Below, piece after piece: positions 40,615 through 62,141 of a DNA stretch of 64,000 nt (the first letter of the stretch is position 1; every line of letters starts with the position of its first letter). The stretch is from Candidatus Micrarchaeota archaeon (lineage in GTDB: Archaea > Micrarchaeota > Micrarchaeia > Norongarragalinales > Norongarragalinaceae): NCBI GenBank assembly GCA_016207165.1, contig JACQQD010000005.1, forward strand, positions 128,001-192,000, read 5' to 3'. The position numbers and the translations under genes are program-made. The notes below the pieces were generated by a model. It was not told the origin of the DNA. It saw only the letters and a list, made by a program, of their open reading frames with translations, and ran no database searches.

Positions 40615-40619
40615 GGCCT

Positions 40620-45587: not shown

Positions 45588-45842
45588 TCATGCCAGAACA
45601 AGGATTTGACCACGGCCAAAGGCGTTCTTGTTGTTGAAGCCTTCAAACCAGATGCCGACCATGTCGCCGGTTCCTGCTTGCGAAACCATTTCGTGTTTTT
45701 TCTCGATGCCGGCCACCTTGTGTTTCACGCCTTCCAATTCCACTTCCTGGCCCACCAAGACTGGGCCCTCTTGGACTTGGCCGACGAACAGGACGCCCCG
45801 ATTCGACACATCAAACGCGCCCTGGACCGTGAACTTCCCCAT
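45588..45842 (-). CDS. Stand-alone EF-Tu domain-II-like beta-barrel protein
   Basis: MGKFTVQGAFDVSNRGVLFVGQVQEG...IEKKHEMVSQAGTGDMVGI; only the distal part of the 292-aa track ORF. Confidence 0.75.
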   Translation of the reverse strand: MGKFTVQGAFDVSNRGVLFVGQVQEGPVLVGQEVELEGVKHKVAGIEKKHEMVSQAGTGDMVGIWFEGFNNKNAFGRGQILVLA

Positions 45843-45905: not shown

Positions 45906-46559
45906 ATGTGGGTGGCTGAATTCAAGGTCTGGCACAAAGGCTCGGCGGCGCGGGAAGTCACCAACCAATTTGACGTGACGTTGGAGAGCCACTACCTGAA
46001 CGTCTTCATGGAAAAGGGAACCGAGTACATCACCGGCGTCATGGTGGTGCGCGGAAAAGACGCGGACGCGGCGACGGCGGCTTTCATCGACGGCATCACC
46101 AAGCAAGGCGTGCGGCAAATCAAGCGGGAAGGCAACCAGTTGTTCTACATCGTTCCTTCGGTCAAGCAGTTTCACTCCTCGGTCTTGAACGCCAACGTGT
46201 TCTTCATTAAACCTCAATTCATCCAGGAAGGGTTCGCTTTTTGGACCGTGGCCTCCTTTGAAAAAAAGCACTTGATGGAATTGTACCATTCCATTGGGAG
46301 ACTCCGAAAATCCACGGCCACCATTGAATTGTTGTCGCTCAAACAGCAACCCGCTCCCGTGTTTTCCTCTTCGCACTTGCACCAGCTCACCGAAAAACAG
46401 CGCCAGGCCTTCCAATCCGCGTGCCGGGAAGGCTATTACGCCTGCCCCCGCAAGATTTCCCTTCAAGGACTAGCCGACAAATTGGGACTGGCGTACACCA
46501 CGTTCAAGGACCGTTTGCGTTCCGCCGAGGAGAAGCTGTGGCCCGCCCTGGCGCCGTAG
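45906..46559 (+). CDS. Bacterio-opsin-activator-type (HTH-10) transcriptional regulator, paralog 1
   Basis: MWVAEFKVWH; C-terminal LTEKQ...GYY..PR...LA..LG.....DRLRSAEEK. Confidence 0.85.
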   Translation: MWVAEFKVWHKGSAAREVTNQFDVTLESHYLNVFMEKGTEYITGVMVVRGKDADAATAAFIDGITKQGVRQIKREGNQLFYIVPSVKQFHSSVLNANVFFIKPQFIQEGFAFWTVASFEKKHLMELYHSIGRLRKSTATIELLSLKQQPAPVFSSSHLHQLTEKQRQAFQSACREGYYACPRKISLQGLADKLGLAYTTFKDRLRSAEEKLWPALAP

Positions 46560-46609
46560 CCGCCAAGTAGCGGAAAAAGCTTTAAGCCCTCCATTGCCCC
46601 CATCATGCC

Positions 46610-48094
46610 ATGGTAACATTCCCGAAGGATTTGGAAATCGCCAAAAAACTTCCATGGGCTCCGTACGCGGGAAGAAATTTGTCGTACTATTTCACGTACA
46701 TGCATTTGCGCGACACGTACGGCACGTTTTATGAACAACTGTTGGGCGTGCGCTTTGCCGCGCTTTTTGTCACGGCGGAAGGTTCCAAATGGCAGATGTA
46801 CCGCTCGCCGAAGGAATCCGAGCGACTCGAAAAACACGTGTACGCCGCTTCGGAGGACCCCGCCTACGTCCAGCGCGTCTTGGACCACACGCAAAAAACG
46901 TACGACGCGTTGGAGAACACCTGCCATCAGTACTTGAACCTGGACTTTACCGCCATGTCCAACGGTGAACTGGCAAAGCGGCTTGACGCCTTCCGTGACG
47001 TATACTTGAACGCCGTCGCCAGCATCTCCTGTTCCATCATTTTTGCCTCCGCCTTGTCCCAACGCATCGGCAAAGACGTTCCGGAGAACGATTTGCTCAA
47101 GATGGCCCTTCCATTGAAAAAGACCATTCCGCTTGAAGAGGAACTGGCTTTTTGGCAATTGGTGGCAACACTCCAAATACAAGACGCGTTTCCCATCGCG
47201 TCCCTGGAAACACTTTCTCCGAGCACCCGCGCGTTGGTCCAAAAACACTTCGACGCGTACTTGTGGCTGGAAGCGTACGAGAACGACCCGATTTGGCGCA
47301 TGCAGGACTTCGTTTCGCGGTTGAACGACGCCGCCAACCAAGACGCATCCGCCAAACGCAGCCACCTTGAACGCCGCCACGACGAGCAAGACCAGGAAAT
47401 CGAGGCGCTCCGGAAAAAACACGGCGTGGACGCCCTCCCACTCAACCAGTTCCGCCAAGCCATGTACTACCGCATCCTGGGCGAAAGCCTGGTGGGCCTG
47501 GCCAACCACGCCACGCAGAAACTGTTTGCCGCCATTGCCAAGAAACTGTTTTTGCCGTTGAACCAAATCAAGTGGTTCTCCGACGAGGAACTCACCTCCG
47601 CGCTTCGCGGCCACCTGGACCTGGACGTGCTGTCCGGCCGGCTTTCTCAACGCCAGCAAATCTACCTCATTGCCTTGGGCGAGAAAAACGTGCACGCCTT
47701 TGAAGGCCGCCGCGACGTCAAATCCATTCTGGACCAGTTCGACGTGGAGGAACCCGAACTTGAACCAGTCACGGAAATCCGCGGCGTTTCAGCTTACCCT
47801 GGAAAAGTCCAAGGCATCGCCCGCGTCGTGCATGACGTGAGCGAACTGGAAAAAGTAAAGCAAGGCGACATCCTCGTCACCCTGAACACCACGCCTTCGT
47901 TTGTGTTGGCCATGAAGCGTTCTGCCGCTATCGTCACCGACGAAGGTGGCATCACGTGTCACGCCGCCATCGTTTCGCGGGAACTGGGCATCCCCTGCAT
48001 CATTGGCACCAAAGCCGGCACGCGCCTGATCCGCGACGGCGCTAAAATCGAAGTGGACGCCGCGTCGGGCCTCGTTCGTCACTTGGACGATTAG
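46610..48094 (+). CDS. Helical domain + PEP-utilising phospho-His swivel domain protein, paralog 1
   Basis: C-terminal TDEGGITCHAAIVSRELGIPCIIGT; no ATP-grasp or TIM barrel. Confidence 0.85.
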   Translation: MVTFPKDLEIAKKLPWAPYAGRNLSYYFTYMHLRDTYGTFYEQLLGVRFAALFVTAEGSKWQMYRSPKESERLEKHVYAASEDPAYVQRVLDHTQKTYDALENTCHQYLNLDFTAMSNGELAKRLDAFRDVYLNAVASISCSIIFASALSQRIGKDVPENDLLKMALPLKKTIPLEEELAFWQLVATLQIQDAFPIASLETLSPSTRALVQKHFDAYLWLEAYENDPIWRMQDFVSRLNDAANQDASAKRSHLERRHDEQDQEIEALRKKHGVDALPLNQFRQAMYYRILGESLVGLANHATQKLFAAIAKKLFLPLNQIKWFSDEELTSALRGHLDLDVLSGRLSQRQQIYLIALGEKNVHAFEGRRDVKSILDQFDVEEPELEPVTEIRGVSAYPGKVQGIARVVHDVSELEKVKQGDILVTLNTTPSFVLAMKRSAAIVTDEGGITCHAAIVSRELGIPCIIGTKAGTRLIRDGAKIEVDAASGLVRHLDD

Positions 48095-48115
48095 GCGTCC
48101 ATTGGTCATGCATCC

Positions 48116-48247
48116 ATGGCGTTGACGTGCGCGTTTGAACTCGTCGTCATCCTCGTCGTATCCTACTTTTTCTGGGGCATGATTGGCAACCGCGACCGGC
48201 CGGAGCGGAAGCCCGAGCCCTGGGTAAGGAAAATAAACTGGAAGTGA
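48116..48247 (+). CDS. Small single-TM protein (43 aa)
   Basis: MALTCAFELVVILVVSYFFWGMIGNRDRPERKPEPWVRKINWK fills the intergenic gap. Confidence 0.55.
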   Translation: MALTCAFELVVILVVSYFFWGMIGNRDRPERKPEPWVRKINWK

Positions 48248-48290
48248 CTTCCGTCAGGAAAAACCCATTAAAATCCCGTTGCCTACGTTC

Positions 48291-49856
48291 ATGCCTATGA
48301 AATGGTTCGTGATGGAGGTCTGCCCCCGCAGCCACCCCCTCATGCTGGTGCCGCCCATGATTGGCTTTGCGGACTTGCGTGAATTCGGCGCTCCGGTGCC
48401 CATCGACTATTCGCTCATCGACAGCCGCCGCGGCGACGAGAAACTTATTTTCCCCCGTGAACCCTTCTCCAAAGCCGGCCACGCCATTCTGGAAAAGCTG
48501 TTGGCGAACACCGAGTGGGGTTTGGAGCATAACCAGTCCATTACCGCCTATGGAGAAAAATTTCTCAAAAAAACCGACGAGTTGCTCAAGGACGTGGACG
48601 TCAAGTCCAAAACCAATGAGGAACTCGCCAGCATTTACGAGACGCTCTATGAGTTCCAACGCAAGTCCCACGTGTCCGGCTTGGTCTGGGTGGTGCTGGA
48701 ATTCGATCATCAACTGCTCACCCGTTACCTGGTGGATTACCTCAAGCAAACCATCCAATCCAACCACCTTACGCTGAAGGCCGCCGAAGCCTTCTCGGTT
48801 TTGACTACGCCCACCAAAGACAGCTTCGCCCAACGCGAAGAACGCTCGCTTCTCGAAACCGCTTCCCAAGTCCAAGACGTCCGCCTCAAGAACCTCTTCG
48901 CCTCCACCGACTTGGACGCCTTGGACGTCAAGCTCCCCAAAATGCATCCGTCCCTTTCAAGGCAAATCGACGACCACGTCAAGCATTTTGCCTGGTTGCC
49001 CTACATGTACGAAGGACCGGCCTGGAACCGCAAATACTTCCTGCAAGTCCTTCAAGGCCTGCTCAAAGAGGACGTAGCCGCGCTTTTGGAAACCGCGAGA
49101 ACCCGCCACGAGAAAACCCGCGCCCGCCAGCAAGAAATCCTGCAATGGCTTGAACTAGACGAAAAACACGAAACCCTCTTGGAAGTGGCCCAAGGAATGG
49201 TGTTTACCAAGGGCTACCGAAAAGACGTGTTGTACCACTTCTTCTGGAAAATGGAGCCGTACCTCAAGGAAGTCGGAAAACGCCTGGGGTTGACCGTCAA
49301 GCAAGTCCGGCGCTTGATGCCCTGGGAAATCCCCGCCGCCCTGCGAGGGCAACCCGTGGACGCCAATGAACTCAACTCCCGCTTCGAGCATTACGTGCAA
49401 TACGTCCACGCCGGAAAACGAGAAATTTATTCCGGAAAAGCCGCCGAAAAATTCCTGGAACGCTTCGACTTGGAAACCATGAATGCCGCTTCCGGCGTCC
49501 GCGAATTGAAAGGCGATTGTGCGTGCCCCGGCCGCGCCCGAGGAGCCGTTAAAATCATAGAGTCCCCGGCGGATATGGCCAAGTTCAACTCCGGCGACGT
49601 GTTGGTGGCCCACGCCACCAATCCCGACGTGGTTCCCGCCATGAAAAAAGCGTCCGCCATTGTCACGGACATGGGCGGCATCACGTGCCACGCCGCCATC
49701 GTTTCCAGAGAACTAAAGATTCCCTGCGTGATCGGCACGAAAATCGCTACCGCCGCTTTAAGAGACGGCGACGTGGTGGATGTGGACGCCAACCATGGTT
49801 TGGTGTGCAAGCTTGATTCCAATGCCAGCCATGGCCTGGCTCTTAAAATCCGTTGA
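48291..49856 (+). CDS. Helical domain + phospho-His swivel domain protein, paralog 2
   Basis: TDMGGITCHAAIVSRELKIPCVIGT. Confidence 0.85.
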   Translation: MPMKWFVMEVCPRSHPLMLVPPMIGFADLREFGAPVPIDYSLIDSRRGDEKLIFPREPFSKAGHAILEKLLANTEWGLEHNQSITAYGEKFLKKTDELLKDVDVKSKTNEELASIYETLYEFQRKSHVSGLVWVVLEFDHQLLTRYLVDYLKQTIQSNHLTLKAAEAFSVLTTPTKDSFAQREERSLLETASQVQDVRLKNLFASTDLDALDVKLPKMHPSLSRQIDDHVKHFAWLPYMYEGPAWNRKYFLQVLQGLLKEDVAALLETARTRHEKTRARQQEILQWLELDEKHETLLEVAQGMVFTKGYRKDVLYHFFWKMEPYLKEVGKRLGLTVKQVRRLMPWEIPAALRGQPVDANELNSRFEHYVQYVHAGKREIYSGKAAEKFLERFDLETMNAASGVRELKGDCACPGRARGAVKIIESPADMAKFNSGDVLVAHATNPDVVPAMKKASAIVTDMGGITCHAAIVSRELKIPCVIGTKIATAALRDGDVVDVDANHGLVCKLDSNASHGLALKIR

Positions 49857-49920
49857 CCCGTCATGTGGCGTCCAAAGAATCAAAAAGCAATCCCAACACC
49901 CTTGTAACGGTGTTTTCTCC

Positions 49921-50862
49921 ATGAGCTTCATTCTTCCATTTACTCAGTTGTCCAAAGACCACGTCTCCATTGCCGGCGGCAAGGGAGCCCAATTGGGAGA
50001 AATGACGCAAGCTGGCATTTCCGTGCCTCCAGGCTTCGTCGTCCTGACGGCCTCCTTTGACGAAATGCTGGAGGAAAACAACCTCAAAAACAGCATCCAG
50101 GAAATCCTCAAGAGCGTGGACCCCAAGAACACGGAAACCGTCAACTTGGCCTCCGAACAAATCCGGCACATCATCTCCAAAGCGCATGTGCCGCACAACG
50201 TGGAAAAGGAAATCCACTCCGCCTTCGACGCGTTGGACGCCATGTTCGTGGCCGTCCGTTCCAGCGCCACCGCCGAAGACGCCTCCACGGCGTCGTGGGC
50301 CGGGGAACTGGAAACCTACTTGAACGTAGAGCGCGACGGCCTGATTGCCGCCGTCAAGAAATGCTGGTCCTCTCTTTTTACTCCCCGCGCGATTTTTTAC
50401 CGATTCGAAAAAGGCATGGCGCACTTGGACATTTCGGTAGCGGTGGTCGTCCAGAAAATGGTGCAGAGCGAGGTTTCCGGCGTGGCGTTCACCGTTCACC
50501 CCGTCACCAAGGACCCAAACCAGTTGGTCATCGAGGCGGGCTGGGGATTGGGGGAAGCCGTGGTCGGCGGCCTCATTACTCCGGACAACTACGTGGTGGA
50601 CAAGGCCGAAGAGCTGATTTTGGACGTGACGGTCAACTCCCAAGACAAGATGATTGCCAAAGACAAAACCGGCCAAACCCATGAAGTTCCGGTGCCCCCG
50701 GAAAAACGCGAGAAACAGAAACTCGACGGAAAAACCATCATGAAGTTGGCGGCCTTGTTCCAGCGCATCGAGCACCACTACGGAAAGCCGCAGGACATCG
50801 AGTGGGCCTGGGAAAAAGGCGAGACGTTCGTCGTGCAAACCCGGCCAATTACCACCCTCTGA
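49921..50862 (+). CDS. Stand-alone PEP synthase/PPDK N-terminal ATP-grasp domain
   Basis: GGKGAQLGE, VPPGF, AVRSSATAED, SGVAFT, GLGEAVV, PQDIEW, ends QTRPITTL-stop. Confidence 0.92.
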   Translation: MSFILPFTQLSKDHVSIAGGKGAQLGEMTQAGISVPPGFVVLTASFDEMLEENNLKNSIQEILKSVDPKNTETVNLASEQIRHIISKAHVPHNVEKEIHSAFDALDAMFVAVRSSATAEDASTASWAGELETYLNVERDGLIAAVKKCWSSLFTPRAIFYRFEKGMAHLDISVAVVVQKMVQSEVSGVAFTVHPVTKDPNQLVIEAGWGLGEAVVGGLITPDNYVVDKAEELILDVTVNSQDKMIAKDKTGQTHEVPVPPEKREKQKLDGKTIMKLAALFQRIEHHYGKPQDIEWAWEKGETFVVQTRPITTL

Positions 50863-50975
50863 ATATTCTTTTAAGAATATTTTTTGTTTACTTTATTCTG
50901 TCTTTGCCCTTTCCGCAACATATAAATACCGACGGCCATATCATTGTTACTAAAAAGTAGTAACAAGTGAGCTTC

Positions 50976-51149
50976 ATGGTTTTGGAAAGCATTGCCTTTG
51001 CCTTGGTCTTCGGCGGCGCCGTTTTTGCGTGGCAGATGTTCACGCAACCCCTCAAGACACGCTCCGCCAGAACCAACTACGGCGCGGCCGAAATGTACCC
51101 CCACGCCAAATTCCGGGACTACAAGCCCTACGCCCACGCCGACTACTAG
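50976..51149 (+). CDS. Small single-TM protein
   Basis: MVLESIAFALVFGGAVFAWQ... with TATAAATA box upstream. Confidence 0.55.
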   Translation: MVLESIAFALVFGGAVFAWQMFTQPLKTRSARTNYGAAEMYPHAKFRDYKPYAHADY

Positions 51150-51226
51150 TCGGAACCCATTCCATTACTTTCTTACCCCCCGCCCCAGCGTCAGCTCTTT
51201 AACCGCCTTTAGCCATTCTCCCTATC

Positions 51227-51871
51227 ATGTGGGTGGCTACTTTCAAAGCGTGGCACGAATCGCGTTTTTTGCGCCTCACGGAACGCCTCGACGTGCGCAT
51301 GACGGCCTACTACTTGAATACCTTTCGGGAGCGCGGCCAAACCGTGATCAACCGCCTGACGTTCGTGGAGGGCCCGGACGCCGAAAAAGCCATCCAATCC
51401 ATTCTAGAGGAGCCGCGCATCAAAGTCGTTGAACGCACCGGCAACCAGCTCATCTACCAATTGCCGGAACTTCGGGGCTTTCACAACGTGGTGGCCGACC
51501 GCCGGTTCATCTTCGTCAAACCCATGTACGTGGAAAACGGTTTTGAGTATTGGACCGTGGCGTCGCTTCGCAAGAAAGACTTGCTTTCGTTGTACCGCAA
51601 TCTCAAGAAACTCAAGTTCAAAGCCACGGTGGACCTCTTGTCCATCCACCCGCAAACCCCGCGCTTCATGCACTACGGGTTGTTGACGGATTTGACCGAC
51701 AAACAGCGAAAGGTGCTGGATGCCGCGTTTGCCTTGGGGTATTATTCCTATCCCCGGCGCACCGACGCACGGGGCCTGGCCAAGGCACTGGGCATTCCGT
51801 ACACGACCTGCATGGAGCACCTGCGGAAAGCCGAGTCCAAGGTTATGGAGGCCCTATCCGGAAAGCCGTAA
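51227..51871 (+). CDS. HTH-10 transcriptional regulator, paralog 2
   Basis: MWVATFKAWH; LTDKQ...GYYSYPR...EHLRKAESK. Confidence 0.87.
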   Translation: MWVATFKAWHESRFLRLTERLDVRMTAYYLNTFRERGQTVINRLTFVEGPDAEKAIQSILEEPRIKVVERTGNQLIYQLPELRGFHNVVADRRFIFVKPMYVENGFEYWTVASLRKKDLLSLYRNLKKLKFKATVDLLSIHPQTPRFMHYGLLTDLTDKQRKVLDAAFALGYYSYPRRTDARGLAKALGIPYTTCMEHLRKAESKVMEALSGKP

Positions 51872-51916
51872 TAGTACGGCACCACTTTTTTATTCCGCTC
51901 CAGCCACCGCAAACCC

Positions 51917-53344
51917 ATGGAATTGGAAGTCCTGGAGCACGAGTTCAACGCCGCACCGTTTCCCATTTTCTGCGTGGGTGAAGCCGTCACCACGCGATGG
52001 AAGCCTCACCTGGGCCGAAACGTGGACGTGTTCGCCATGGACTTGGACGGCACGAAACTCCGCTGGATTCTGTCGATGGATTCCTGGAACGCCTGCGCCG
52101 ACGCGTTGTTCGACGTTTTCTCCAAAGACCCCGATTCCTTTTGGATTCTGGAAAAAAACGTCCGACGCACCGTGTCTGAACTTTGGGACTTCGCCAAAGA
52201 CTGGAAGACGCGCGACTTCTCGGCGTGCGCCCACCCCGAACTTTTTTCCCTCTACGCCGGTTTTCTGCAACGGCTCCGCACCACCTTTGAATACGGCGTA
52301 CTGCTGAGCATCGCCGATTTTAACCCGCCCAAGCTGACGTTGCACCTGCAAGCCATCGCGCAAAAGCGCTTCGGCGAAAACGCCAACGCCGCGTTTACCA
52401 CCCTGACGACCAACGTCGACGAGCACACCTACCAAAAGGACGAGGAACTGGATTTCCTGCGCATTCTAGCGCTTCCGGAAAGCCGCCGCCCCGACGCCAT
52501 CCGCGAACACGCCGAACGATTTGGGTTTCTCTCGTACGGATATCGGGGGCCCGTGACGTGGACGGAAGCCTACTTTGCGGAATTGGTGGCGGCGAGTGCC
52601 ACCCCGGGCTTGGGCCCCGCGCAAAAGCTGAAGCAACATGAGTACGACGCCCAAAAAACCCGGGAAGCCATCCACGTCCTTGAATCCAAATTGTCCGACG
52701 AAGAAAAAAAGTGGTTTTCCATTGGAAGAAAACTCGTATTCTTGAAGCCTTGGCGCAAGGAAAGCCAAATTAGGACCTATCCATTGGCTGAACGGCTTTT
52801 GCGGGAAATCGCCAAACGCCTCGACGTTCCACTGGAAGCCACCAAGTACCTCACGGAAGACGAAATGAAGACGGCGTTGCTGGATGGCCGCGTGGATGTG
52901 GATGAACTCATGGCCCGCAAAAAACGGTGCTTCGTCTTGAGTCAGAACGGCCGAACCGCGATTTACTCCGGCGAAAGAGCCGAAGCGTGGTCCGCCCAAG
53001 TCAAGCCCGAAGAGATTCCCGACGTTCAATTTCTTTCCGGCACTCCGGCCACCGTCGGCCACGTGAAAGGAACGGTATGCATCGTGAACGCGCCCGAGGA
53101 CATCGCCAAAATGAAGGAGGGCTTTATTCTTCTCAGCGTGGCCACCAACCCCTTCCTCATGCCGGCCATCAAGAAAGCGGCGGCCATCGTCACCGACCAA
53201 GGCGGGCTGACGTGCCACGCCGCCATCGTTTCGCGGGAATTCAACATTCCGTGCGTGGTGGGCACGCGTCATGCCACCCGCATCTTTAAAGACGGCGATT
53301 CCATCGAAGTGGACGCCAAGCTTGGCATCGTCAAAAAGGTGTAA
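51917..53344 (+). CDS. Helical domain + phospho-His swivel domain protein, paralog 3
   Basis: TDQGGLTCHAAIVSREFNIPCVVGT. Confidence 0.85.
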   Translation: MELEVLEHEFNAAPFPIFCVGEAVTTRWKPHLGRNVDVFAMDLDGTKLRWILSMDSWNACADALFDVFSKDPDSFWILEKNVRRTVSELWDFAKDWKTRDFSACAHPELFSLYAGFLQRLRTTFEYGVLLSIADFNPPKLTLHLQAIAQKRFGENANAAFTTLTTNVDEHTYQKDEELDFLRILALPESRRPDAIREHAERFGFLSYGYRGPVTWTEAYFAELVAASATPGLGPAQKLKQHEYDAQKTREAIHVLESKLSDEEKKWFSIGRKLVFLKPWRKESQIRTYPLAERLLREIAKRLDVPLEATKYLTEDEMKTALLDGRVDVDELMARKKRCFVLSQNGRTAIYSGERAEAWSAQVKPEEIPDVQFLSGTPATVGHVKGTVCIVNAPEDIAKMKEGFILLSVATNPFLMPAIKKAAAIVTDQGGLTCHAAIVSREFNIPCVVGTRHATRIFKDGDSIEVDAKLGIVKKV

Positions 53345-53364
53345 CTCGGCGTGAAGCCCGTCAT

Positions 53365-53685
53365 TCAGTGTCGTGAAGGCCCTGGAGTATTCCGAATGGC
53401 TGCAGAAGCAATGCGCTTGACCAATTCTTTGCGATTGCCTTTATCAATGAACGGATGACAAACGACTTCGACTTTCGGTATGTGCCGCAAAGCAGACTGG
53501 ACTTCCATCCAATCCCAGAATTCATGCAAGACCTTCTCAGTCCAGCCAGAAAAAGTTTTGATGGGTTCTGCCGCAAGCTGCTGTTCGAGCCGGACTGGTT
53601 TTCCGCCCTTCAAAATCCGATTCCGCACTTCCAAATGCAAGTTCCCTGAACCCGCATCTTCTCTTAACGCAATATAGACGTGCAT
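53365..53685 (-). CDS. Hypothetical protein
   Basis: 106-aa ATG-started ORF filling the gap before hutH. Confidence 0.4.
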   Translation of the reverse strand: MHVYIALREDAGSGNLHLEVRNRILKGGKPVRLEQQLAAEPIKTFSGWTEKVLHEFWDWMEVQSALRHIPKVEVVCHPFIDKGNRKELVKRIASAAIRNTPGPSRH

Positions 53686-53757
53686 TGGGTTCCAACGACT
53701 TATTCATTCCGCAGCCTTAAAATGCTTTCATTCACAAGTTTGGCTCAGGTGGGAAGA

Positions 53758-55272
53758 TTGATCGAACTAGGCCAACGCCTTCTTACAGTTGAAGACATCG
53801 TCCACGTAGCGCGCGAAAACGAAAAAGTCGAGTTGTCCCCCCTTGCGCGCCAACGCATCCAATCCGCCCGAAAAGTCGTCGACGACACGTTAGCCTCAGG
53901 AATTGTGGCGTACGCCATCAACACCGGGTTTGGCGCACTCAAAAACAAGGTCATCAACCTCCAAGACCAGGAACAACTCCAGAAAAATTTCCTGGCCAGC
54001 CACGCCGTCGGCGTTGGAACCGCGTTTCCGGAAGAAGTCAGCCGCGCCATGCTGTTGATTCACGCCAACTCCTTGGCTTTGGGCCACTCCGGCATCCGCC
54101 TTCAAACCGTTGAAACCATGTTGAAACTTCTCAATAAGGGCGTCCACCCCATCATTCCGGAGAAAGGCTCGGTGGGAGCCAGCGGCGACTTGGCTCCACA
54201 GGCCCACATGGCGCAAGTGCTCACCGGACAAGGCGAGGCCGCCTACAAAAGCCAACGCATGCCCGCCAATGAAGCAATGAACGCCGCCGGAATTGCCCCC
54301 ATTATACTGGAAGCCAAGGAGGGCCTGTCCCTTTCCAACGGCACCGCCGCCATGACCGCCGTTGGGGCGCTGTGCGTTTTTGACGCTGAAGTGCTGGCCG
54401 AAACCGCGGACGTGACCGCCGCCATGTCGCTGGAGGCGTTGATGGGAACCGACGCGGCCTTGGATGAGAAAATCCACGCCCTAAAGCCTCACGCCGGACA
54501 AAAAATCGTTGCCGCCCACATGGGGTCCCTTACCAAGGACAGTCAAATCATGGCTTCCCACAAAGACTGCGACCGCGTCCAAGACGCGTACAGTCTCCGC
54601 TGCATTCCGCAGGTTCACGGCGCGTCGCGCGACGCGATTGCCTACGCAAAAAAAGTGGTGGAAACCGAGATGAACTCGGCGACGGACAACCCACTCATCT
54701 TCGAAAACGGCCAAGTCATTTCCGGAGGCAACTTCCACGGCCAGCCCGTGGCCTTGGCCATGGACTTTTTGGGCATTGCCGTGGCCGAGCTGGGCAGCAT
54801 TTCCGAGCGGCGCACCTTCCGTTTGGTGGACCCCAAGCTCAACGAAGGCCTTCCCCCCTTTTTGGTAAAAGACAGCGGTTTGAACACCGGGTACATGATC
54901 CTGCAATACACGGCCGCCGCCTTGGTTTCGGAAAACAAGGTTCTTTCCCACCCCGCATCCGTGGACTCCATTCCCACGTGCGCCAACCAAGAAGACCACG
55001 TCAGCATGGGCACCATCGCCGCCCGGAAAGCCGCGCAAATCATTGACCACGTCCAGCACGTCGCTGCCGTTGAAGCGCTGTGCGCCGCCCAAGCCCTGGA
55101 TTTCCGCTTGCCCTTGAAATCCGGGGAAGGCACCCGCAAGGCGCATGCCTGCGTGCGCGCAAAGGTGCCTCACATGGAAAACGACCGTCCCGTGCAACCC
55201 GACGTGTTACGCGTTCTGGAATTGATCAAAACCGGCCAACTGTTGCAATCCACGAAACAAAAAAGGGGTTGA
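53758..55272 (+). CDS. hutH: Histidine ammonia-lyase
   Basis: [16 protein letters not shown] (MIO), [22 protein letters not shown]; start (TTG after AGGTG) uncertain. Confidence 0.95.
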
Positions 55273-55277
55273 CCTTC

Positions 55278-56975
55278 ATGTCTCGGCCCATGTTTTACGA
55301 AGAACGCCCCGCCAAACCGGTTTACCCCAACACGGAAAAGGTTTGCAAGACGTGGGAAGCCGAAGCCGCATTGCGCATGCTGCAGAACAACGTCAGCCCG
55401 CCCATCGCCGTGCAACCCGAGGAACTCATCGTGTACGGCGGATCGGGCCGGGCCTCCCGAAACTGGCGCGCCTACAACGACATCGTCAAGTGCCTTGAAA
55501 AATTGGAGCCCGATGAAACCCTCTTGGTGCAATCCGGAAAACCGGTCGCCGTTTTCCAGACTTTCGACCACGCGCCCCGGGTCTTGATCGCCAACTCGAA
55601 TTTGGTTCCGCACTGGGCCACGCAAGCCGAGTTTGACCGACTGGATTTAATGGGTTTGACGATGTACGGACAGATGACGGCCGGGTCCTGGATTTACATC
55701 GGCACGCAAGGCATCCTGCAAGGCACCTATGAAACCTTTTCAGCCCTGGCCAAAAAACACTTCGGCGCCTCCAGCTTGAAAGGCAAATTCGTCTTGACGG
55801 CCGGAATGGGCGGCATGTCCGGCGCACAACCCCACGCCGTCACCTTCAACGAAGGCGTGGTTCTGGATGTGGAAGTTCGGCCCGAACGTGTAAAGCGAAA
55901 GGTCAAGGAAGGTTATTGCGACCAAATGACGGAAAACCTGGATGAAGCCCTGTCTTGGGTGACGTCTGCCCAAAACCAAGGGACCCCGCTTTCCGTTGGT
56001 CTGGTGGGCAACGCCGCCACCATTCACGCCGAACTGGTGCGCCGCAACGTCACCCCCGACATCGTCACCGACCAAACCTCGGCCCACGACCTCCTCTCTT
56101 ACGTCCCGGAAGGGCCCTTGCAGGAAATGGACCGCCTCCGCGAAAAAAATCCAGATGAATACCGCCGGCAGTCCCTGGCATCCATCCAAAAACAGGTGGC
56201 CGCGATTTTGGAAATGCAAAAACGCGGCTCCATTTGCTTTGACTACGGCAATAATCTGCGCCGCCAAGCCGAAATTGCGGGCGTGCAAGGAATTCGAAAA
56301 ACCGACGGCACCGGGCAGTGGGCCTATCCCGGTTTTGTTCTCGAATATGTTCGCCCGCTGTTTTGTGAAGGCAAAGGCCCGTTCCGCTGGGCGGCGCTTT
56401 CCGGCAACCCCAAAGACATTCAAGTCATTGACGACGCTCTTCTGGACACGTTTCCGGACGACAAAGCGCTGGCCCGCTGGATCCAATTGGCCCAAAAGAA
56501 GGTGCCGCAAATCGGTCTTCCTTGCCGCGTCTGCTGGCTGGGCTTTGGTGAACGCGCAAAATTCGGCAAAACCATCAACTCGCTTGTCGCCTCCGGCGAA
56601 GTAAGCGCCCCCATCGTGATCGGCCGCGACCATTTGGACTCGGGGTCCGTGGCCTCGCCCAACCGGGAAACGGAAGGCATGAAGGACGGCTCGGACGCCA
56701 TCGCGGACTGGCCCATTTTAAACGCCTTGATCAACACGGCCGCGGGCGCGGACTGGGTGTCGTTTCACCACGGCGGAGGCGTCGGCATCGGCTACAGTCT
56801 GCATGCCGGCATGGTCGTGGTGGCCACCGGCACCACGGAAAAAGAAAAACGGCTGGAACGCGTCCTGACTACGGATCCCGGCATGGGCATCGCGCGACAC
56901 GCCGACGCGGGCTACGACATCGCCATCAAGACGGCGAAAAGAAAAGGCGTCAAGATTCCAAGAATCACGGTCTAA
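55278..56975 (+). CDS. hutU: Urocanate hydratase
   Basis: [36 protein letters not shown]. Confidence 0.96.
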
Positions 56976-57589
56976 CGCTTGGAATAAACAATTTTCAACA
57001 TCGAATTTTTCTGGTTTTCCGCTTTTTCCAGGTTCGCCGCCAATTGCGTTCTGACTTCGTTGACGAACGGTTCGTCCTTGATGGCCGCCAAATTGATTTT
57101 CACGTTGTACCCCGCGCCTTGCAACCCCGCGTACGTCATCTGGATGCCGGTGCCCACATCGGAGGCCACGTTCGGGCTGGAAAGTTGGGCAATAGTTTGT
57201 CCGGCCTCCAAGACGCTCAACGCGCACTGCATCGTTTCCAGCGGAGCGGTTGCGGCGTTTTTGAAAGCGGATTGGATGGCGGCAACGCGTTTGTTTTTTT
57301 CTTCTTCCGAGTTTTTCGGCAACGCAAACGCGGCCATAACCTGTTTGAACGCCTCGGTGTCTTCGTCCACCAACTTCATCAATCGTTCTCTTTCTTTTTC
57401 CAGTTGGGGCAACAAGTCGGACAAGGCGGCGTTGGCCTCTTTTTTCGTGGAAATGCGAATCGCCATGCACAGCAAGCCCGCGCCCAGTGCCGCAGACAAG
57501 GCCGCGACCGAGCCGCCGCCGGGAGCCGGCGAATCGGAGGCCACGGCGTCAACGAAGTCGAGGACTTTTTTTTCAACGAGTTTTTCCAT
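56972..57589 (-). CDS. Formiminotetrahydrofolate cyclodeaminase
   Basis: [24 protein letters not shown]. Confidence 0.88.
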
Positions 57590-57607
57590 GCCGTGTTACA
57601 CTCCGGT

Positions 57608-58510
57608 TCACTCGATCAAACGAGCTTCAATGACTTGATCGGACGTGAAGCTTTCCAGCTTCAAATAGAATGCCGACGTGTCCACCAACGCCTGCAGCGG
57701 GACCATGCCCACGATTTCGCTCTCGGTGATTTGTACGCCGTGCTTTTCGGCTTCTTTCTTTACGGCTTCAAAGGCCTTGAAGATGGGTGTTTCCAAATAG
57801 TTGACCAAGTTCATGGACACCTGCACGATGCCTTTTTCCCTGATTTCAAAGCCCATGGCCTTGACGTGCGGCAAGCCGCCGTCTTTCTCCCGCACGGCTT
57901 TGGCAATCGCCTTGGCAATGGACACGTCCGCTGTAGCCAAATTGACGTTGAATGCAATCAATGGCATGCGCGCGCCAACCGCGGTGAAACCCGCGCTTGC
58001 ATGCATTCGGGTTGGGCCGTAGTCCGGTTTGCGGGACGGATTCGTCTGGAATTCGGCTTTGATGCCTTCGTACTCTCCGCGGCGCACGTCCGCCAAATTG
58101 GTGCGTGCCGGGGTTTTGGCCGCGGATTCGTACAAGTACACTGGAATACGTAGTTCGTCACCGATTCTTTTTCCGACCTCGTTGGCGTATTGCACGCACT
58201 CTGCCATGGACACGTTTTGAATGGGTATGAAAGGGATGACGTCCGTGGCGCCCATCCGGGGATGCTGTCCGCGGTGTTTTTCCATGTCGATGAGTTCCGC
58301 GGCTTTCTTGCACGCCAAAAAAGCCGCTTGCTTGACTGCCTCCGGTTCGCCCAAGTACGAGACGTCCAACCGGTTGTGGTCTGCATCCGCGAGACTGGAT
58401 AGTACCGTGATTCCGGGAACGGATTGAATTTCCGCGATGATGGAGTCCATGACGGCCTGGTTTCTTCCTTCGCTGAAGTTGGGAACGCATTCCACGATTT
58501 TTTTGGCCAT
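57608..58510 (-). CDS. ftcd: Glutamate formiminotransferase
   Basis: VECVPNFSEGR, DHNR, HPRMGATDVIPF, QVSMNL. Confidence 0.94.
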   Translation of the reverse strand: MAKKIVECVPNFSEGRNQAVMDSIIAEIQSVPGITVLSSLADADHNRLDVSYLGEPEAVKQAAFLACKKAAELIDMEKHRGQHPRMGATDVIPFIPIQNVSMAECVQYANEVGKRIGDELRIPVYLYESAAKTPARTNLADVRRGEYEGIKAEFQTNPSRKPDYGPTRMHASAGFTAVGARMPLIAFNVNLATADVSIAKAIAKAVREKDGGLPHVKAMGFEIREKGIVQVSMNLVNYLETPIFKAFEAVKKEAEKHGVQITESEIVGMVPLQALVDTSAFYLKLESFTSDQVIEARLIE

Positions 58511-58607
58511 AACACCCCAAACCCAAAAAGACAAGTCGGCGCAAGGCGCGCTTGAGTTTTGTTGGATGGCCACCGTTTTTAAGGATTGCAGGGCGCTACA
58601 TTGTAGA

Positions 58608-59864
58608 ATGGCCAAAATCAAAGCCGACGTGGTAATCCAAAATGCCGGCGAACTTGTCACCGTGGCCTCCAAAGGAAAACCGCTTGCCGGAAAGAACGCC
58701 GGCCACATTGGAGTCATTCCCGACGGCGCCCTGGCCATCGCCGGCCATCGAATCATCGCCGTGGGCACCACGAGCGCCGTGTTGAAAAACGTGGATGCCG
58801 CCGATGCCCAAATCTTTGACGCTTCCGGAAAGACCGTGCTACCCGGTTTCGTGGACTGCCACACGCATCTGGTGTTCGCCGGCTCGCGCGAAGACGAGCT
58901 TGAACTCAAAGCCCAGGGCGTGCCTTACTTGGAAATCCTCAAAAGAGGCGGCGGAATCCTCCAGACGGTCCGGCAAACCCGCGCCGCATCAAAAGGCCAA
59001 CTCGTCGAAAATGCCGTGCGGACCTTGAACACCATGCTGGAACACGGCACCACCACAATCGAGGCCAAATCCGGCTACGGGTTGGAAGTAAAAACCGAGA
59101 TGAAAATCCTCGACGCGGCAACCCAAGCCGCCAAGCGTTCGCCCGTGGAAATCGTCAACACGTTTTTGGGCGCGCACGCCGTGCCGCCGGATGCGACGGC
59201 CGACCAATACACGAAAACCGTCATTGAAGAAATGATTCCGCAAGCCGTTGGTAAAGCCGAGTACGGCGACGTGTTCTGCGAAAAGGACGTTTTTTCCGTG
59301 GACCAAAGCCGCCGCATTTTAAAGGCCGGAAAAAAAGTCGGTCTAAAGACGCGAATTCATGCGGACCAACTCAACAGGACCGGCGGCGCGGAACTGGCCG
59401 CTGAAGTCAACGCCGTGTCCGCCGACCACCTCATCCACGCCTCGACAGACGGCATCCGTCGGATGGCCCAAAGCGGCACCGTCGCCGTCCTTTTGCCCGC
59501 CACCGGACTGTCTTCCATGCTGCCGTACGCACAAGCCCGAGCCTTCATCGACGCCGGCGTTCCAGTCGCCCTTGGAACGGACTTTAATCCCAACTGTTGG
59601 TGCGAATCCATGCCGTTTTCCATGGCGTTGGCCTGCCGCTACCTCAAGATGACGGCGGCTGAAGCCATCGCCGCGTCCACGATCAACGCCGCCCATTCCT
59701 TGAACCGCGCGGACCGAATCGGCAGCCTGGAAGTCGGCAAACAGGCCGACGCCGTCATCCTGGACGCGCCCAACCACCAATTTGTTCCTTACCAATTCGG
59801 CGTCAACCGCGTCCAAACCGTCATCAAGAAAGGCAACGTCGTGGTCCAGAAATCCAACGAGTGA
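58608..59864 (+). CDS. hutI: Imidazolonepropionase
   Basis: DCHTHLVF, GGGI, EAKSGYG, HADQL, SADH, TDFNP. Confidence 0.95.
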   Translation: MAKIKADVVIQNAGELVTVASKGKPLAGKNAGHIGVIPDGALAIAGHRIIAVGTTSAVLKNVDAADAQIFDASGKTVLPGFVDCHTHLVFAGSREDELELKAQGVPYLEILKRGGGILQTVRQTRAASKGQLVENAVRTLNTMLEHGTTTIEAKSGYGLEVKTEMKILDAATQAAKRSPVEIVNTFLGAHAVPPDATADQYTKTVIEEMIPQAVGKAEYGDVFCEKDVFSVDQSRRILKAGKKVGLKTRIHADQLNRTGGAELAAEVNAVSADHLIHASTDGIRRMAQSGTVAVLLPATGLSSMLPYAQARAFIDAGVPVALGTDFNPNCWCESMPFSMALACRYLKMTAAEAIAASTINAAHSLNRADRIGSLEVGKQADAVILDAPNHQFVPYQFGVNRVQTVIKKGNVVVQKSNE

Positions 59865-59873
59865 AACGAACTC

Positions 59874-60542
59874 ATGTGGGTCGCTGAATTCCGCGTCTGG
59901 CACGAATCCTCGCACGTGCTTTCGCTGACCAAGAAATTCAACGTGACGGTCCACAGCGTGTATTTGTCCCTCTACAAGAAAGGCCGCCGCACGCTGATCA
60001 ACAAAGTCTTCTCCGTCAACGGCCCCGACGCGCAAAAATACATTGCGGAAATGAAGAAAGGACACCAACGCTACCGCGTACGGCACGTGGAGCAAAACTA
60101 CGTGTTTTTTTCCATCCCCTTGGACCCCCACGCCATTTCCTACCACGCGTTGGTGCTGGACGACGAAACTTTTTTCGTCCGCCCGTTCGTCCTGAAAGGC
60201 GGATATGAATATTGGACCGTGGCGTCTTGGAACAAAAACGCGTTGACCCAATTGTACAAGAAAACCAAAGCCGCTGGCGAGGCGTCCTCCATCACGCTTT
60301 TGTCCCTCAAAAAAACGCGGGTGGACTTGTTCGTCCCCGACGCCCTCCAGCGCCTCGGCGCCAAGCAAGCCCAGGTTTTGCAATCCGCGGTCTTTATGGG
60401 GTACTATGGTTATCCCCGCAAACTCTCCTTGAAGGTTTTGGCCCGAAAACTCGGCCTCAGCCCGGCCACCGTCCGCGAACACCTGCGAAACGCGGAAGCC
60501 AAGATTTTGCCGGCGGCCACGGAACAGCTGGCGCGGCGTTAA
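59874..60542 (+). CDS. HTH-10 transcriptional regulator, paralog 3
   Basis: MWVAEFRVWH; KQ...GYYGYPRK...EHLRNAEAK. Confidence 0.87.
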   Translation: MWVAEFRVWHESSHVLSLTKKFNVTVHSVYLSLYKKGRRTLINKVFSVNGPDAQKYIAEMKKGHQRYRVRHVEQNYVFFSIPLDPHAISYHALVLDDETFFVRPFVLKGGYEYWTVASWNKNALTQLYKKTKAAGEASSITLLSLKKTRVDLFVPDALQRLGAKQAQVLQSAVFMGYYGYPRKLSLKVLARKLGLSPATVREHLRNAEAKILPAATEQLARR

Positions 60543-60593
60543 ACCGCGCATGCGCGGGTCAAACCCATTTAAGGCCAGACGTTAACCGTTTAA

Positions 60594-62141
60594 ATGGTTT
60601 TCATGCTGCAACACGGTTTTACTCATTTAAACGACGATACGCCGTGGATTTTGGCCGAAGACATTCCGGACATGGACTTGTTCTTCAGCCAGATTTGGAT
60701 CAAAAGCTTCGTCAACAACCTATCCAATTCCTGCGGCAAAAACTACAAGAAAGTCTTGGCGGTATACCGGGGCTACCACCAACAATTCTATTACGGCGAA
60801 AAAGACTGCCACGATTTTGCCAAACACCTTATTTCCAAACTCAAATCCGAACCCGGTTGGGGCGACGCCATCAACGAAAACATCGTTTTATTCTCCGACC
60901 AATTGGCCGCCCACGCCCAAAGCGTTTCCTCCGTGGACCTCAAATCCGCTTCCAACGCCTACCTTTGGCAACAGTACGAAACGCATGTGCGCCTTCACAC
61001 CCAGTTGTACGAATGGGGCTGGCTTCCCAACGCCGTGGACATGTTTTTCCCGGAATTGACCAACCACCTCAAAGCCGTCCTGCGCTCCCACGCCGACAAC
61101 GAAGAACAAGTCAACACGTGGTTCGTTTGCCTGACCACGTCGGAACAGGAAACCATTGCCTCCCACGAACACAAAGACCTCGTCCGGCTTGCCCTCGAAA
61201 TCCGCAACGACGAACGCATGACCCAACTCTTCCAGAAAGGCACGACCCACGCCATGCAACACACGCCCCCCGAAATCAAGAAACAACTTCACGACATTCA
61301 CTCCAAATACAAGCACCTCCAATTCATGTACCACGGCCGCGCCGGAAAACTGGAAGACGTTTTCTTTGCGTTGGAAGCGCTTCTCAACGACAAGAAAGAC
61401 TTGGCCGAGGAACTCAACCGCATCGAAAACCTTTCTAAAAAAACCAAGGCCGCCAAAGGAAAACTCTTTACCGAATTGAAATTGCCTTCAAAACACAAGC
61501 ACCTATTCCACGTGTTCGCGGAATTCATGTACACCAAATGGCACCGCAGAAACGCCCAAATCCTGGCGCTTTACCACTTGGAGCCCCTTCTTTTGGAAAT
61601 CGCGTCCCGCTTGGGGTTGACCCTCCAACACGTCCGCACCCTTTTGTGGTCGGAAGTGAAAGCCGGGCTACTTGAAGACAAACCCATCAAGCCAAAAGAC
61701 GTCGACTCCCGTTTCACCTATTACGCCTACTACGTCGAAAAAGGAAGGGAAGCCATTTTCTTGGGCAACGACGCGGAAGCCCTGGAAAAAAAGGCCAAGA
61801 CTCTCTTTGTCGATGAAAACCTCCAGGAGCTGCGCGGCCAGACCGCGTGCCTGGGCAAAGCCGTCGGCACGGTCAAAATCGTTCTCGGACCCAAGGACCT
61901 CTCCAAAATGAGGAAAGGCGACGTCTTGGTTGCCATCGCCACGGATCCCGACGTGGTGCCAGGCATGAAAATCGCTTCGGCGATTGTCACCGAGCAAGGC
62001 GGAGTGACTTCGCATGCCGCGATCGTCTCCAGAGAACTGGGCGTGCCCTGCCTCATCGGCACGAAAATCGCGACGAAATGGCTGAAAGACGGTGACCGGG
62101 TTGAAGTTGACGCCACGAAAGGTTTGGTCCGAAAACTTTAA
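60594..62141 (+). CDS. Helical domain + phospho-His swivel domain protein, paralog 4
   Basis: TEQGGVTSHAAIVSRELGVPCLIGT. Confidence 0.85.
   Translation: MVFMLQHGFTHLNDDTPWILAEDIPDMDLFFSQIWIKSFVNNLSNSCGKNYKKVLAVYRGYHQQFYYGEKDCHDFAKHLISKLKSEPGWGDAINENIVLFSDQLAAHAQSVSSVDLKSASNAYLWQQYETHVRLHTQLYEWGWLPNAVDMFFPELTNHLKAVLRSHADNEEQVNTWFVCLTTSEQETIASHEHKDLVRLALEIRNDERMTQLFQKGTTHAMQHTPPEIKKQLHDIHSKYKHLQFMYHGRAGKLEDVFFALEALLNDKKDLAEELNRIENLSKKTKAAKGKLFTELKLPSKHKHLFHVFAEFMYTKWHRRNAQILALYHLEPLLLEIASRLGLTLQHVRTLLWSEVKAGLLEDKPIKPKDVDSRFTYYAYYVEKGREAIFLGNDAEALEKKAKTLFVDENLQELRGQTACLGKAVGTVKIVLGPKDLSKMRKGDVLVAIATDPDVVPGMKIASAIVTEQGGVTSHAAIVSRELGVPCLIGTKIATKWLKDGDRVEVDATKGLVRKL

Follow-up and report, generated by a model that had tools for sequence, protein, structure and literature searches.

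One ATP-grasp subunit and a family of divergent His-swivel partners: a probable one-to-many small-molecule dikinase system in a micrarchaeal genome

What does one stand-alone ATP-grasp gene do beside four genes that each encode a divergent N-terminal domain of ~400 aa joined to a C-terminal histidine (His)-swivel domain? The question is raised by a 64,000-nucleotide stretch of a micrarchaeal genome, here called the window (contig C6:128001-192000 of assembly G000; gene positions are given within the window). Below, A denotes the ATP-grasp domain, N the N-domain and S the swivel, and the partner proteins are referred to as N-S subunits. The likely answer is that the cluster encodes a hub-and-spoke version of a two-component small-molecule dikinase of the rifampin phosphotransferase (RPH) type. 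The ATP-grasp protein would be a shared charging subunit and the N-S proteins substrate-specific phosphotransferases, a reading drawn from the fold of the N-domain, the intact catalytic motif, the precedent of HpeHI, PpsAB and RPH, the gene ratio, the linkage of the genes and their natural fusions. The initial annotation of this DNA had proposed such a shared ATP-activating subunit, and this interpretation is supported in silico, each of its suggested checks that was run having agreed with it. The source assembly comprises 1.27 Mb in 12 contigs, is 90% complete and has a G+C content of ~0.57. Close homologues of the window proteins bear names such as Candidatus Micrarchaeota or Norongarragalinales archaeon, so that the host is a DPANN archaeon. 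The sequencing runs that contain the window DNA are groundwater metagenomes, and a search for RNA runs covering the region found none.

PpsAB (phenylphosphate synthase), CreHI and HpeHI are two-component small-molecule dikinases (PMC12167813). As characterised there (Dexter et al., J Biol Chem 2025), the ATP-grasp component is HpeI, for which a crystal structure exists, and HpeH combines a rifampin-binding-like domain with a swivel. The conserved His of HpeH is essential, its replacement by Gln abolishing activity. HpeH alone moves phosphate between substrates, and a stable HpeH-HpeI complex is not formed (PMC12167813). A Met is found two residues before the His in HpeH, CreH, PpsA and RPH, and all characterised split dikinases described in the same portion of the paper are 1:1 gene pairs (PMC12167813). 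The split as such thus has precedents, and what is new is limited to the one-to-many form and the subfamily described here.

The ATP-grasp gene lies in an open reading frame (ORF) at 49780-50862 in which PF01326 (PPDK_N) is the sole Pfam domain, and the first Met before the domain places its start at 49921. Its PDB matches by phmmer are PEP (phosphoenolpyruvate) synthase 8a8e (E 6e-72), RPH 5hv6 (E 4.7e-60) and 9goj ("Crystal structure of HpeI"; E 2.3e-53, covering ATP-grasp residues 7-300), so that by these sequence matches it is closer to PEP synthase and RPH than to the HpeI structure. It scores 342-349 bits on the NCBIfam PEP synthase models (TIGR01418/NF005057, cut-offs 598-740) and 292 bits on the RPH models (cut-off 999). 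Pfam assigns to each of the four partner proteins a single family at E<=0.01, PF00391 (PEP-utilizers), which stands at the extreme C-terminus; no PEP/pyruvate-binding domain is detected in the four at that threshold. The swivels read GGITCHAAIVSRE in subunits 1 and 2, GGLTCHAAIVSRE in subunit 3 and GGVTSHAAIVSRE in subunit 4. The consensus GG(I/L/V)T(C/S)HAAIVSRE is present in all four (GGITCH in subunit 1), and H451, H467, H434 and H474 are the putative catalytic residues of subunits 1-4, respectively. The catalytic His is invariant in alignments A1, A2 and A5. The initial annotation had described a stand-alone ATP-grasp gene (49921-50862) and four partners with a variable N-terminus, a conserved swivel and no pyruvate-binding domain. 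That description stands, with pairwise identity among the four partners of 14.4-26.0% in the N-domain vs 47.1-66.3% in the swivel. It had made no mention of the HTH_10 regulators, the histidine-utilisation genes, the paralogues on other contigs or the intact PpsA.

Across the source genome there are two PF01326 matches vs 11 PF00391 matches, one of each belonging to an intact PEP synthase, PpsA, on contig 8 (open frame of 794 codons, gene call of 780 aa). Its His motif, GGMTCHAAIVSRE, matches that of the window subunits, and its N-terminus is 47% identical to the ATP-grasp protein. Apart from this domain of PpsA, 49921-50862 is the only stand-alone PPDK_N of the genome. The PEP synthase regulatory protein (PF03618) was not found in it. 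In relative G009 (contig C77), the PpsA-type PPDK_N match falls in two pieces inside a 1454-codon open frame, where an intein is possible. The remaining swivel-bearing genes of the source genome are four full-length N-S genes on contigs 1, 8, 9 and 11, a short 388-aa paralogue (C5:38406-39572, +; L001:10407-11573) that retains only the last ~75 N-domain residues, and a 108-aa ORF encoding the swivel alone, in which GGMTSH is intact (C7:3319-3645, -; L004). The motif GG-x-T/S/L-C/S-H is intact in all nine paralogues that have a swivel and any N-terminal part, and in the swivel-only ORF. The latter is followed by a 356-aa protein without a known family and then a HAD hydrolase; the 356-aa ORF was tried as an N-domain and is not one.

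The divergence seen in the window extends to all eight full-length paralogues, for which the 28 pairwise comparisons average 18.7% identity in the N-domain (14.0-26.0) and 51.6% in the swivel (37.1-68.3). The N-domains are nonetheless homologous among themselves, with BLASTP E values of 1e-40 to 4e-77 over 310-480 aa for most pairs and an N-domain hidden Markov model (HMM) built here that scores subunit 1 at E 3.9e-91. The N-S family is the largest paralogue family of the genome, with seven linked members vs four in each of the next four families in a crude clustering (1195 greedy ORFs of at least 100 aa, BLASTP E 1e-10, 60% coverage, single linkage). The eight full-length genes make up 0.94% of the genomic DNA, or 1.3% with the ATP-grasp gene, short paralogues and regulators. 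Among eight proteins run against the PADLOC defence families, none gave a match.

Signs of decay are absent, as are the pseudogene signatures that the initial annotation had named as a possible objection. All subunit frames are open. The subunits are 53-66% identical to orthologues in two congeneric genomes with dN/dS of 0.10-0.31, values that point to purifying selection and are rough because dS is saturated (1.3-2.7); the ATP-grasp protein is 76-80% identical in the same genomes, with dN/dS of 0.10-0.14. The 16-kb region recurs on contigs of three other samples from one study, which show 0-3 base differences and lack indels; this is weak independent support, since that study may also be the source of the window. 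Subunit 2 has orthologues up to 81% identical in other Micrarchaeota-labelled contigs. The subunit 1 orthologue of G001 consists of two overlapping frames, L008:3053-4474 (N-domain) and 4224-4916 (N-domain end and swivel), and is either a frameshifted pseudogene or an assembly error.

The fold of the N-domain was approached through an AlphaFold2 model of subunit 2 (mean pLDDT 90.7, pTM 0.87, from a 24-row alignment), in which a small beta unit at the N-terminus precedes a long helical domain (~56-366), followed by the swivel (405-508). In a Foldseek search of the PDB, RPH-Lm entries take the first six places (E 2.2e-13 to 4.1e-11, TMq 0.41-0.58, 467-563 columns), and the matches below rank 6 cover the swivel only, with TMq <=0.19. 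With VIA-align, the RPH matches give Z 15.3-19.1 over 327-447 aligned residues within model residues 1-509: for instance, 5fbt aligns with Z 17.9 over 442 residues, model 1-509 lying on chain 326-867 at a root-mean-square deviation (rmsd) of 5.4 A; 5hv1 aligns with Z 17.5, and the N-domain alone (model 2-389) aligns with 5hv3, chain 325-740, with Z 15.3 (rmsd 6.0 A, 327 residues). RPH is the only solved structure that covers the N-domain of subunit 2, with 14-17% identity in the structural alignments. Profile comparison by hhalign of the N-domain with six RPH/PRK06241 central domains, two of which pass the curated RPH cut-off, gives a probability of 79% (E 1.6e-5, 224 columns), and 78% (E ~2e-5) when repeated with 128 family members. 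In this alignment the conserved E346 and R364 of the family pair with the invariant E400 and R418 of the RPH set. NCBIfam and PDB profile matches to RPH-type proteins reach ~100-200 residues upstream of the swivel, the NCBIfam RPH-type models extending over residues 262-473 of subunit 3. An independent model, taken from the ESM Atlas for the homologue P0010 (54% identity), has a PPDK_N+Rph_4th+PEP-utilizers cluster as one structural neighbour (TM 0.72 across 479 residues). As modelled, the N-domain has the fold of the rifampin-binding domain of RPH, as the initial annotation had suspected, and it is the structure that settles the point. The N-domain residues kept in at least 75% of the 128 members are mostly charged (H229, K307, R310, K311, E327, R331, E346 and R364, in subunit 2 numbering), a pattern that would fit a common phosphoryl-transfer site beside a variable pocket.

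The one-to-many ratio is not peculiar to the source genome. It was examined in 41 genomes of the same order, the source genome included, which are related by kinship so that their counts are not independent. An N-domain match (E<=1e-10) is present in 27 of the 41, with up to 11 per genome. Nineteen genomes have at least two such matches, and ten of these (G000, G001, G002, G004, G008, G023, G026, G031, G037 and G038; G008 and G037 are cut by contig ends) encode one PPDK_N in an open frame of 232-441 codons. In G017 it appears only as a 133-codon fragment, and two clear stand-alone ATP-grasps are found in none of the 19. G025 pairs a single N-domain match with one adjoining stand-alone ATP-grasp gene, which is directly followed by a HAD hydrolase gene; a LAGLIDADG-domain ORF (L011:8765-9436) lies near this cluster. 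In the 14 genomes lacking an N-domain match, no stand-alone ATP-grasp was detected bar two contig-end fragments (G010, G039). Where both kinds of gene are present they are usually linked, as in G004, where four N-S genes and then the ATP-grasp gene run head to tail. G001 and G002 repeat the gene order of the window with gain or loss of single cassettes, and loci L011, L013 and L014 place regulator-subunit pairs beside the ATP-grasp gene.

The same ratio recurs in bacteria of the candidate phyla radiation (CPR). Eight CPR genomes, picked for having the family, each encode exactly one stand-alone ATP-grasp protein together with several orphan swivels (9 in G041, 10 in G042, 8 in G043, 10 in G058, 8 in G072, 6 in G089, 3 in G086 and 6 in G074). 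Ten such modules are held in one CPR genome of 0.8 Mb, and in G072 the eight swivel matches and one stand-alone ATP-grasp occur without any PpsA-type match. In CPR genomes, 2-8 N-S genes form arrays that run in one direction and contain or adjoin the ATP-grasp gene. The copy-number ratio, which the initial annotation had proposed to check in DPANN and CPR genomes, holds across the two groups as sampled here. In an even sample of 60 further genomes from the phylum of a Buchananbacteria genome, ten have an N-domain match.

The family as a whole is large. Of 1.84 billion cluster representatives, the N-domain profile matches 5188 at E<=1e-3 and 917 at E<=1e-30. Stand-alone ATP-grasp proteins of ~312-317 aa with 58-60% identity abound, 7992 of the 8000 candidates scored reaching E<=1e-20, and are named from Micrarchaeota and Patescibacteria, e.g. 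Buchananbacteria. When 146 of the 150 best N-domain representatives were classified with our own HMMs, 124 proved to be N-S, eight N-S-N-S, eight N only and two N-S-N-S-N-S. The remaining architectures occur once each: N-S-N-S-N, N-S-S-N, an A-N-S protein of 829 aa with the domain order of RPH, and a 2309-aa N-S-N-S-N-S-A-N-S protein (P0026) in which Pfam finds one PPDK_N and four PEP-utilizers. The representatives come without DNA, and gene-calling error may explain their fusions. Two fused genes are uninterrupted frames under translation table 11, namely L020 from Moraniibacteriota (1311 aa, A-N'-S-N-S) and L021 from an archaeon (1233 aa, one A and two S). Other bacteria have A-N-S in a single chain of 810-828 aa, and none of the fusions found has more than one ATP-grasp. 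Other representatives show additional domains: P0137 (721 aa, 7 cluster members) is N-S followed by a HAD hydrolase, P0107 (1103 aa) carries Response_reg between two N-S modules, and P0111 (1219 aa) has a sub-threshold intein-splicing match (30 vs 35.8 bits).

A maximum-likelihood tree of 39 rows, rooted at midpoint only and with several long branches, sets the N-S family (35 rows) apart from the RPH/PRK08296 rows with support 100/98. CPR and archaeal sequences are interleaved in it: a Falkowbacteria protein falls inside the subunit 2 clade (99/95), and the paralogue on contig 9 forms a pair with a fused protein from Peribacteria (100/97). Subunit 3 forms a clade with its G001 and G002 orthologues (100/100), subunit 4 with those of G001, G002, G025 and G037 (100/100), and subunit 1 is the longest branch. 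The paralogues are considered old because subunits 2, 3 and 4 each have orthologues in other genera.

The mechanism that we propose for this system would begin with the binding of ATP by the single stand-alone ATP-grasp protein (49921-50862). The swivel of any N-S subunit, of which there are four in the window and eight full-length in the genome, would then dock on it, and the invariant swivel His would take the beta-phosphate with release of AMP and inorganic phosphate (Pi), as for PpsAB, HpeHI and RPH. The swivel would next return to its own RPH-like helical N-domain, where a bound small molecule would be phosphorylated. Under such a scheme, phosphate would pass in trans to all paralogues, and the divergent N-domains would set substrate specificity. 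The products could serve scavenging, trapping or detoxification. Dexter et al. proposed a scavenging or trapping role for HpeHI (PMC12167813). Such a role would, speculatively and by analogy, suit a host-dependent cell.

Single subunits may also be separately inducible, as HTH_10 genes lie directly upstream of half of them. In the window, subunits 1, 3 and 4 each follow an HTH_10 gene of their own at a distance of 45-51 bp, and these regulators score 58.9, 74.1 and 62.0 bits on PF04967 vs a gathering score of 23.1. The start of regulator 1 at 45906, with which the region marked in the initial annotation also begins, was placed by the N-terminus MWVAEFKVWH common to all three. Their N-terminal ~150 aa gave no Pfam, NCBIfam or PDB sequence match, and a profile of the regulators against the PDB was likewise empty. 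Of the five family members in the source genome, four immediately precede an N-S gene, namely the three of the window and C11:69120-69806. Regulator 3 is 76% identical to its G001 orthologue with dN/dS of 0.17, and its pairing with subunit 4 is conserved in G001 and G002, whereas the subunit 1 cassette is absent from G002. Regulator-subunit cassettes thus appear to be gained and lost singly, and their arrangement suggests separate induction of individual subunits.

Compared with the characterised split dikinases HpeHI, PpsAB and CreHI, the window system has the same division into a separate ATP-grasp protein and a partner that joins an RPH-like substrate domain to a C-terminal His-swivel. The expected route, from the beta-phosphate of ATP through His to the acceptor with release of AMP and Pi, would also be shared (PMC12167813). 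It differs in that the second component is 475-521 aa vs ~600-620 aa, in that GG(I/L/V)T(C/S)H keeps the Thr of PEP synthase instead of Met, and in that one ATP-grasp gene faces eight partner genes instead of one. Its hosts are CPR bacteria and DPANN archaea rather than aromatic-degrading bacteria, and catabolic pathway genes do not accompany it. RPH (5fbt, 5hv1) has the same domain order once the ATP-grasp is added, and single-chain A-N-S relatives exist within the family; the window system, however, is split over two genes, and the RPH motif is GGLMTHGAV. PEP synthase is nearest by sequence for both the ATP-grasp (8a8e, E 6e-72) and the swivel (E 4e-49), but the N-S proteins have an RPH-like helical domain in place of a PEP/pyruvate-binding domain and score 99-133 bits on the PEP synthase models (TIGR01418/NF005057) vs cut-offs of 598-740. 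An analogy may further be drawn with the phosphotransferase system (PTS), in which one general energy-coupling component feeds many substrate-specific phosphotransferases and in which enzyme I has a His domain homologous to the swivel. Here, the donor would be ATP rather than PEP, membrane components are absent, the shared part is the nucleotide-binding subunit and phospho-His would reside on the specific subunits.

Several results weigh against the hub-and-spoke reading and have to be set beside it. Eight of the 19 relatives with multiple N-S genes (G009, G011, G013, G015, G019, G021, G022 and G029), which are 71-89% complete, show no stand-alone ATP-grasp, and all 41 relatives have a PpsA-type PPDK_N. 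In these eight, either the gene was missed or another donor, e.g. the ATP-grasp domain of PpsA, is used. The N-domain profile alone gives only chance-level matches to PDB sequences by HMMER (best E 0.11), and hhalign against the N region of HpeH/PpsA-type proteins, represented by a profile built from 40 of 118 retrieved PRK08296-type proteins, yields a probability of 0.25%. Such shallow profiles are insensitive, given that the control comparison of PRK08296 with the RPH central domain reaches only 23%; still, as the N-domain lacks a profile match to these N regions or to PDB sequences, a substrate class cannot be transferred from the relatives. The neighbourhoods of the other paralogues, the relatives and the CPR arrays reveal no conserved pathway. 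A model of the fused relative L018 (pLDDT 82.0, pTM 0.52, linker 335-399 with pLDDT <50) has RPH 5hv1 as its best match (E 1.1e-38) and gives no reliable inter-domain geometry. The saturation of dS belongs among these points as well.

An ordinary 1:1 dikinase, in which the ATP-grasp protein would serve only subunit 2 and perhaps subunit 1 while the others are charged by e.g. the ATP-grasp domain of PpsA, is unlikely on balance. It draws on the 1:1 pairing of the characterised systems presented in the accessible text (PMC12167813), to which L078, a PRK08296-type pair, conforms, on the eight relatives just listed, and on PpsA itself, whose motif is nearly the same as that of the N-S swivels and whose ATP-grasp domain shares 47% identity with the stand-alone protein. 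Yet all eight CPR genomes combine one stand-alone ATP-grasp with 3-10 orphan swivels, the relatives never have two, and operon-like arrays place many N-S genes beside one ATP-grasp gene. Natural fusions likewise join one ATP-grasp to two to four N-S modules, and G072 has no PpsA-type match to supply its eight swivels. It is unlikely, too, that the N-S proteins form a His phosphorelay, passing phosphate to receivers or to the adjacent HTH_10 regulators as a signalling device. Single-domain Response_reg genes do occur in two of the six CPR arrays examined (L099, L100), P0107 carries such a domain between its modules, the regulators share an invariant His in their conserved N-terminal domain, and the swivel domain of PTS enzyme I carries phosphate to proteins. 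The N-domain fold, however, is that of the small-molecule-binding domain of RPH, and every characterised relative described in the available part of PMC12167813 phosphorylates a small molecule. Half of the paralogues in the source genome have no adjacent regulator, its two receiver genes adjoin no N-S gene, and the regulator HMM run on 80 named loci, CPR loci included, returned one weak ORF from a haloarchaeal locus.

That the proteins are true orthologues of a named enzyme, whether rifamycin phosphotransferase (resistance) or phenylphosphate synthase (phenol catabolism), is very improbable. NCBIfam RPH, PRK06241 and PRK08296 models do match them, and the parts consulted of two genome surveys report phenylphosphate synthase genes in DPANN genomes (PMC8091004) and count rph-like genes in the CPR resistome (PMC8651080). 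Their scores are nevertheless 53-77 bits vs a cut-off of 999 on the RPH models (NF041857/NF000283, RIF_Ptrans_rph) and 54-106 bits vs 578-730 on the PRK08296 models. These matches are confined to the swivel (~460-608 of the PRK08296 profile) or to the swivel and the last part of the N-domain. Real RPH members reach 1532 (L091) and 1469 bits (L088), and the true PRK08296 member L078, which has the motif GGMMSH and lies beside a 357-aa ATP-grasp gene, reaches 994. By sequence, the second components of the window are not members of the HpeH/PpsA-type family. A UbiD-type carboxylase was not found in the 90% complete source genome, and eight divergent paralogues cannot all have one substrate. The least credible alternative, to which we give almost no weight, is that the genes are ppsA fragments or decaying copies without function. 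It takes its appeal from source databases in which homologues are named "pyruvate, water dikinase" or "phosphoenolpyruvate synthase", the mislabelling that the initial annotation had predicted. It is refuted by the intact 780-aa PpsA elsewhere in the genome, by the open frames under selection (dN/dS 0.10-0.31), by an N-domain without counterpart in PEP synthase and by a family of 5188 cluster representatives.

If one ATP-grasp protein does charge all partners, the hub-and-spoke system would be the first one-to-many dikinase and would provide a ready-made set of ATP-driven small-molecule kinases whose specificity domains can be exchanged. It would also correct metabolic reconstructions in which these genes are read as PEP synthase, pyruvate, phosphate dikinase (PPDK), RPH or phenylphosphate synthase. 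The regulator-subunit cassettes give an entry point to the substrates. The literature consulted yielded no one-to-many dikinase and no such CPR/DPANN family, although supplements (PMC8091004 Fig. S13 and data sets, PMC8651080 Tables S2-S3) may list the genes; MarK, as described in the accessible text, is an unrelated ADP-forming kinase (PMC12624787). The subfamily with its PEP-synthase-type GGxT(C/S)H, the one-to-many ratio and the fusions of one ATP-grasp with two to four modules look new, and the regulator cassettes and the expansion in ultra-small genomes are also part of the novelty.

Many biosynthetic pathways are missing from the ultra-small cells of CPR bacteria and DPANN archaea; by what means these organisms obtain metabolites from their hosts is an open question. 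A wider proposal, plausible and offered tentatively, is that the system is a PTS-like economy device in these organisms, in which one charging subunit and up to about ten specificity subunits, some individually regulated, phosphorylate host-derived small molecules. On this view the family would rank as the largest paralogue family in some of these 0.8-1.3-Mb genomes, would have passed between the two domains of life and would be a main unrecognised metabolite-capture route of ultra-small symbionts.

The layout of the window is given in Table 1. All ATP-grasp, N-S subunit and HTH_10 genes of the cluster are encoded on the + strand.

Table 1. Positions of the dikinase cluster and of other features in the window.
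Feature	Position	Strand	Remarks
HTH_10 regulator 1	45906-46559	+	PF04967 E 4.1e-16; 50 bp upstream of subunit 1
N-S subunit 1, 494 aa	46610-48094	+	PF00391 residues 417-487, E 1.7e-24; His451 codon 47960-47962
N-S subunit 2, 521 aa	48291-49856	+	PF00391 E 5.2e-25; His467 codon 49689-49691; open frame from 48279; gene 64 bp upstream of ATP-grasp gene
Stand-alone ATP-grasp (PPDK_N), 313 aa	49921-50862	+	PF01326 E 6.2e-103, 345 bits
HTH_10 regulator 2	51227-51871	+	PF04967 E 7.6e-21; 45 bp upstream of subunit 3
N-S subunit 3, 475 aa	51917-53344	+	PF00391 residues 400-470, E 3.8e-23; His434 codon 53216-53218
hutH (Lyase_aromatic)	53680-55272		between subunits 3 and 4
hutU (urocanase)	ends 56975		between subunits 3 and 4
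Formiminotransferase-cyclodeaminase pair	FTCD_C 56972-57589; FTCD_N/FTCD 57608 to ~58500	-	
hutI-like amidohydrolase	58437-59864		between subunits 3 and 4
HTH_10 regulator 3	59874-60542	+	PF04967 E 4.6e-17; 51 bp upstream of subunit 4
N-S subunit 4, 515 aa	60594-62141	+	PF00391 residues 440-510, E 9.8e-25; His474 codon 62013-62015; ~10 kb away from ATP-grasp gene
Aconitase, isocitrate dehydrogenase and both subunits of an ATP-citrate lyase-like enzyme	5711-12070		in a row
ilv genes	36736-42335		
Kazal-type protease-inhibitor domain protein	44809-45591	-	just upstream of dikinase cluster
Rfam tRNA match	63532-63640	+	48 bits, full model, 109 nt

The histidine-utilisation genes (53680-59864) that separate subunits 3 and 4 are not part of the dikinase system. 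The same histidine-utilisation cluster is found at the same place in the congener G002 (L009). A + strand ORF at 57044-58153 is spurious, the real genes there being on the minus strand.

Genes scattered in the context of the N-S genes encode hydrolases of the HAD, NUDIX and HD types as well as a phosphoribosyltransferase and a purine nucleoside phosphorylase. All five kinds are present in or beside the CPR arrays L096-L101 and the G025 locus L011 (NUDIX twice), along with an S-adenosylhomocysteine (AdoHcy) hydrolase, two single-domain receivers and a patatin. These neighbours hint, anecdotally, at chemistry on nucleosides or phospho-metabolites, or else at a relay.

A protein with a Kazal domain, a rarity among archaea, stands just upstream of the dikinase cluster; another such domain, combined with Laminin_G_3 (L011:1974-4340), is encoded near the equivalent cluster of G025. 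The Rfam match near the end of the window is probably an intron-bearing archaeal tRNA, and ARAGORN predicts no tRNA across the window. The row from aconitase to the lyase-like enzyme, together with the ilv genes, represents a notable metabolic capacity for a DPANN genome of 1.27 Mb.

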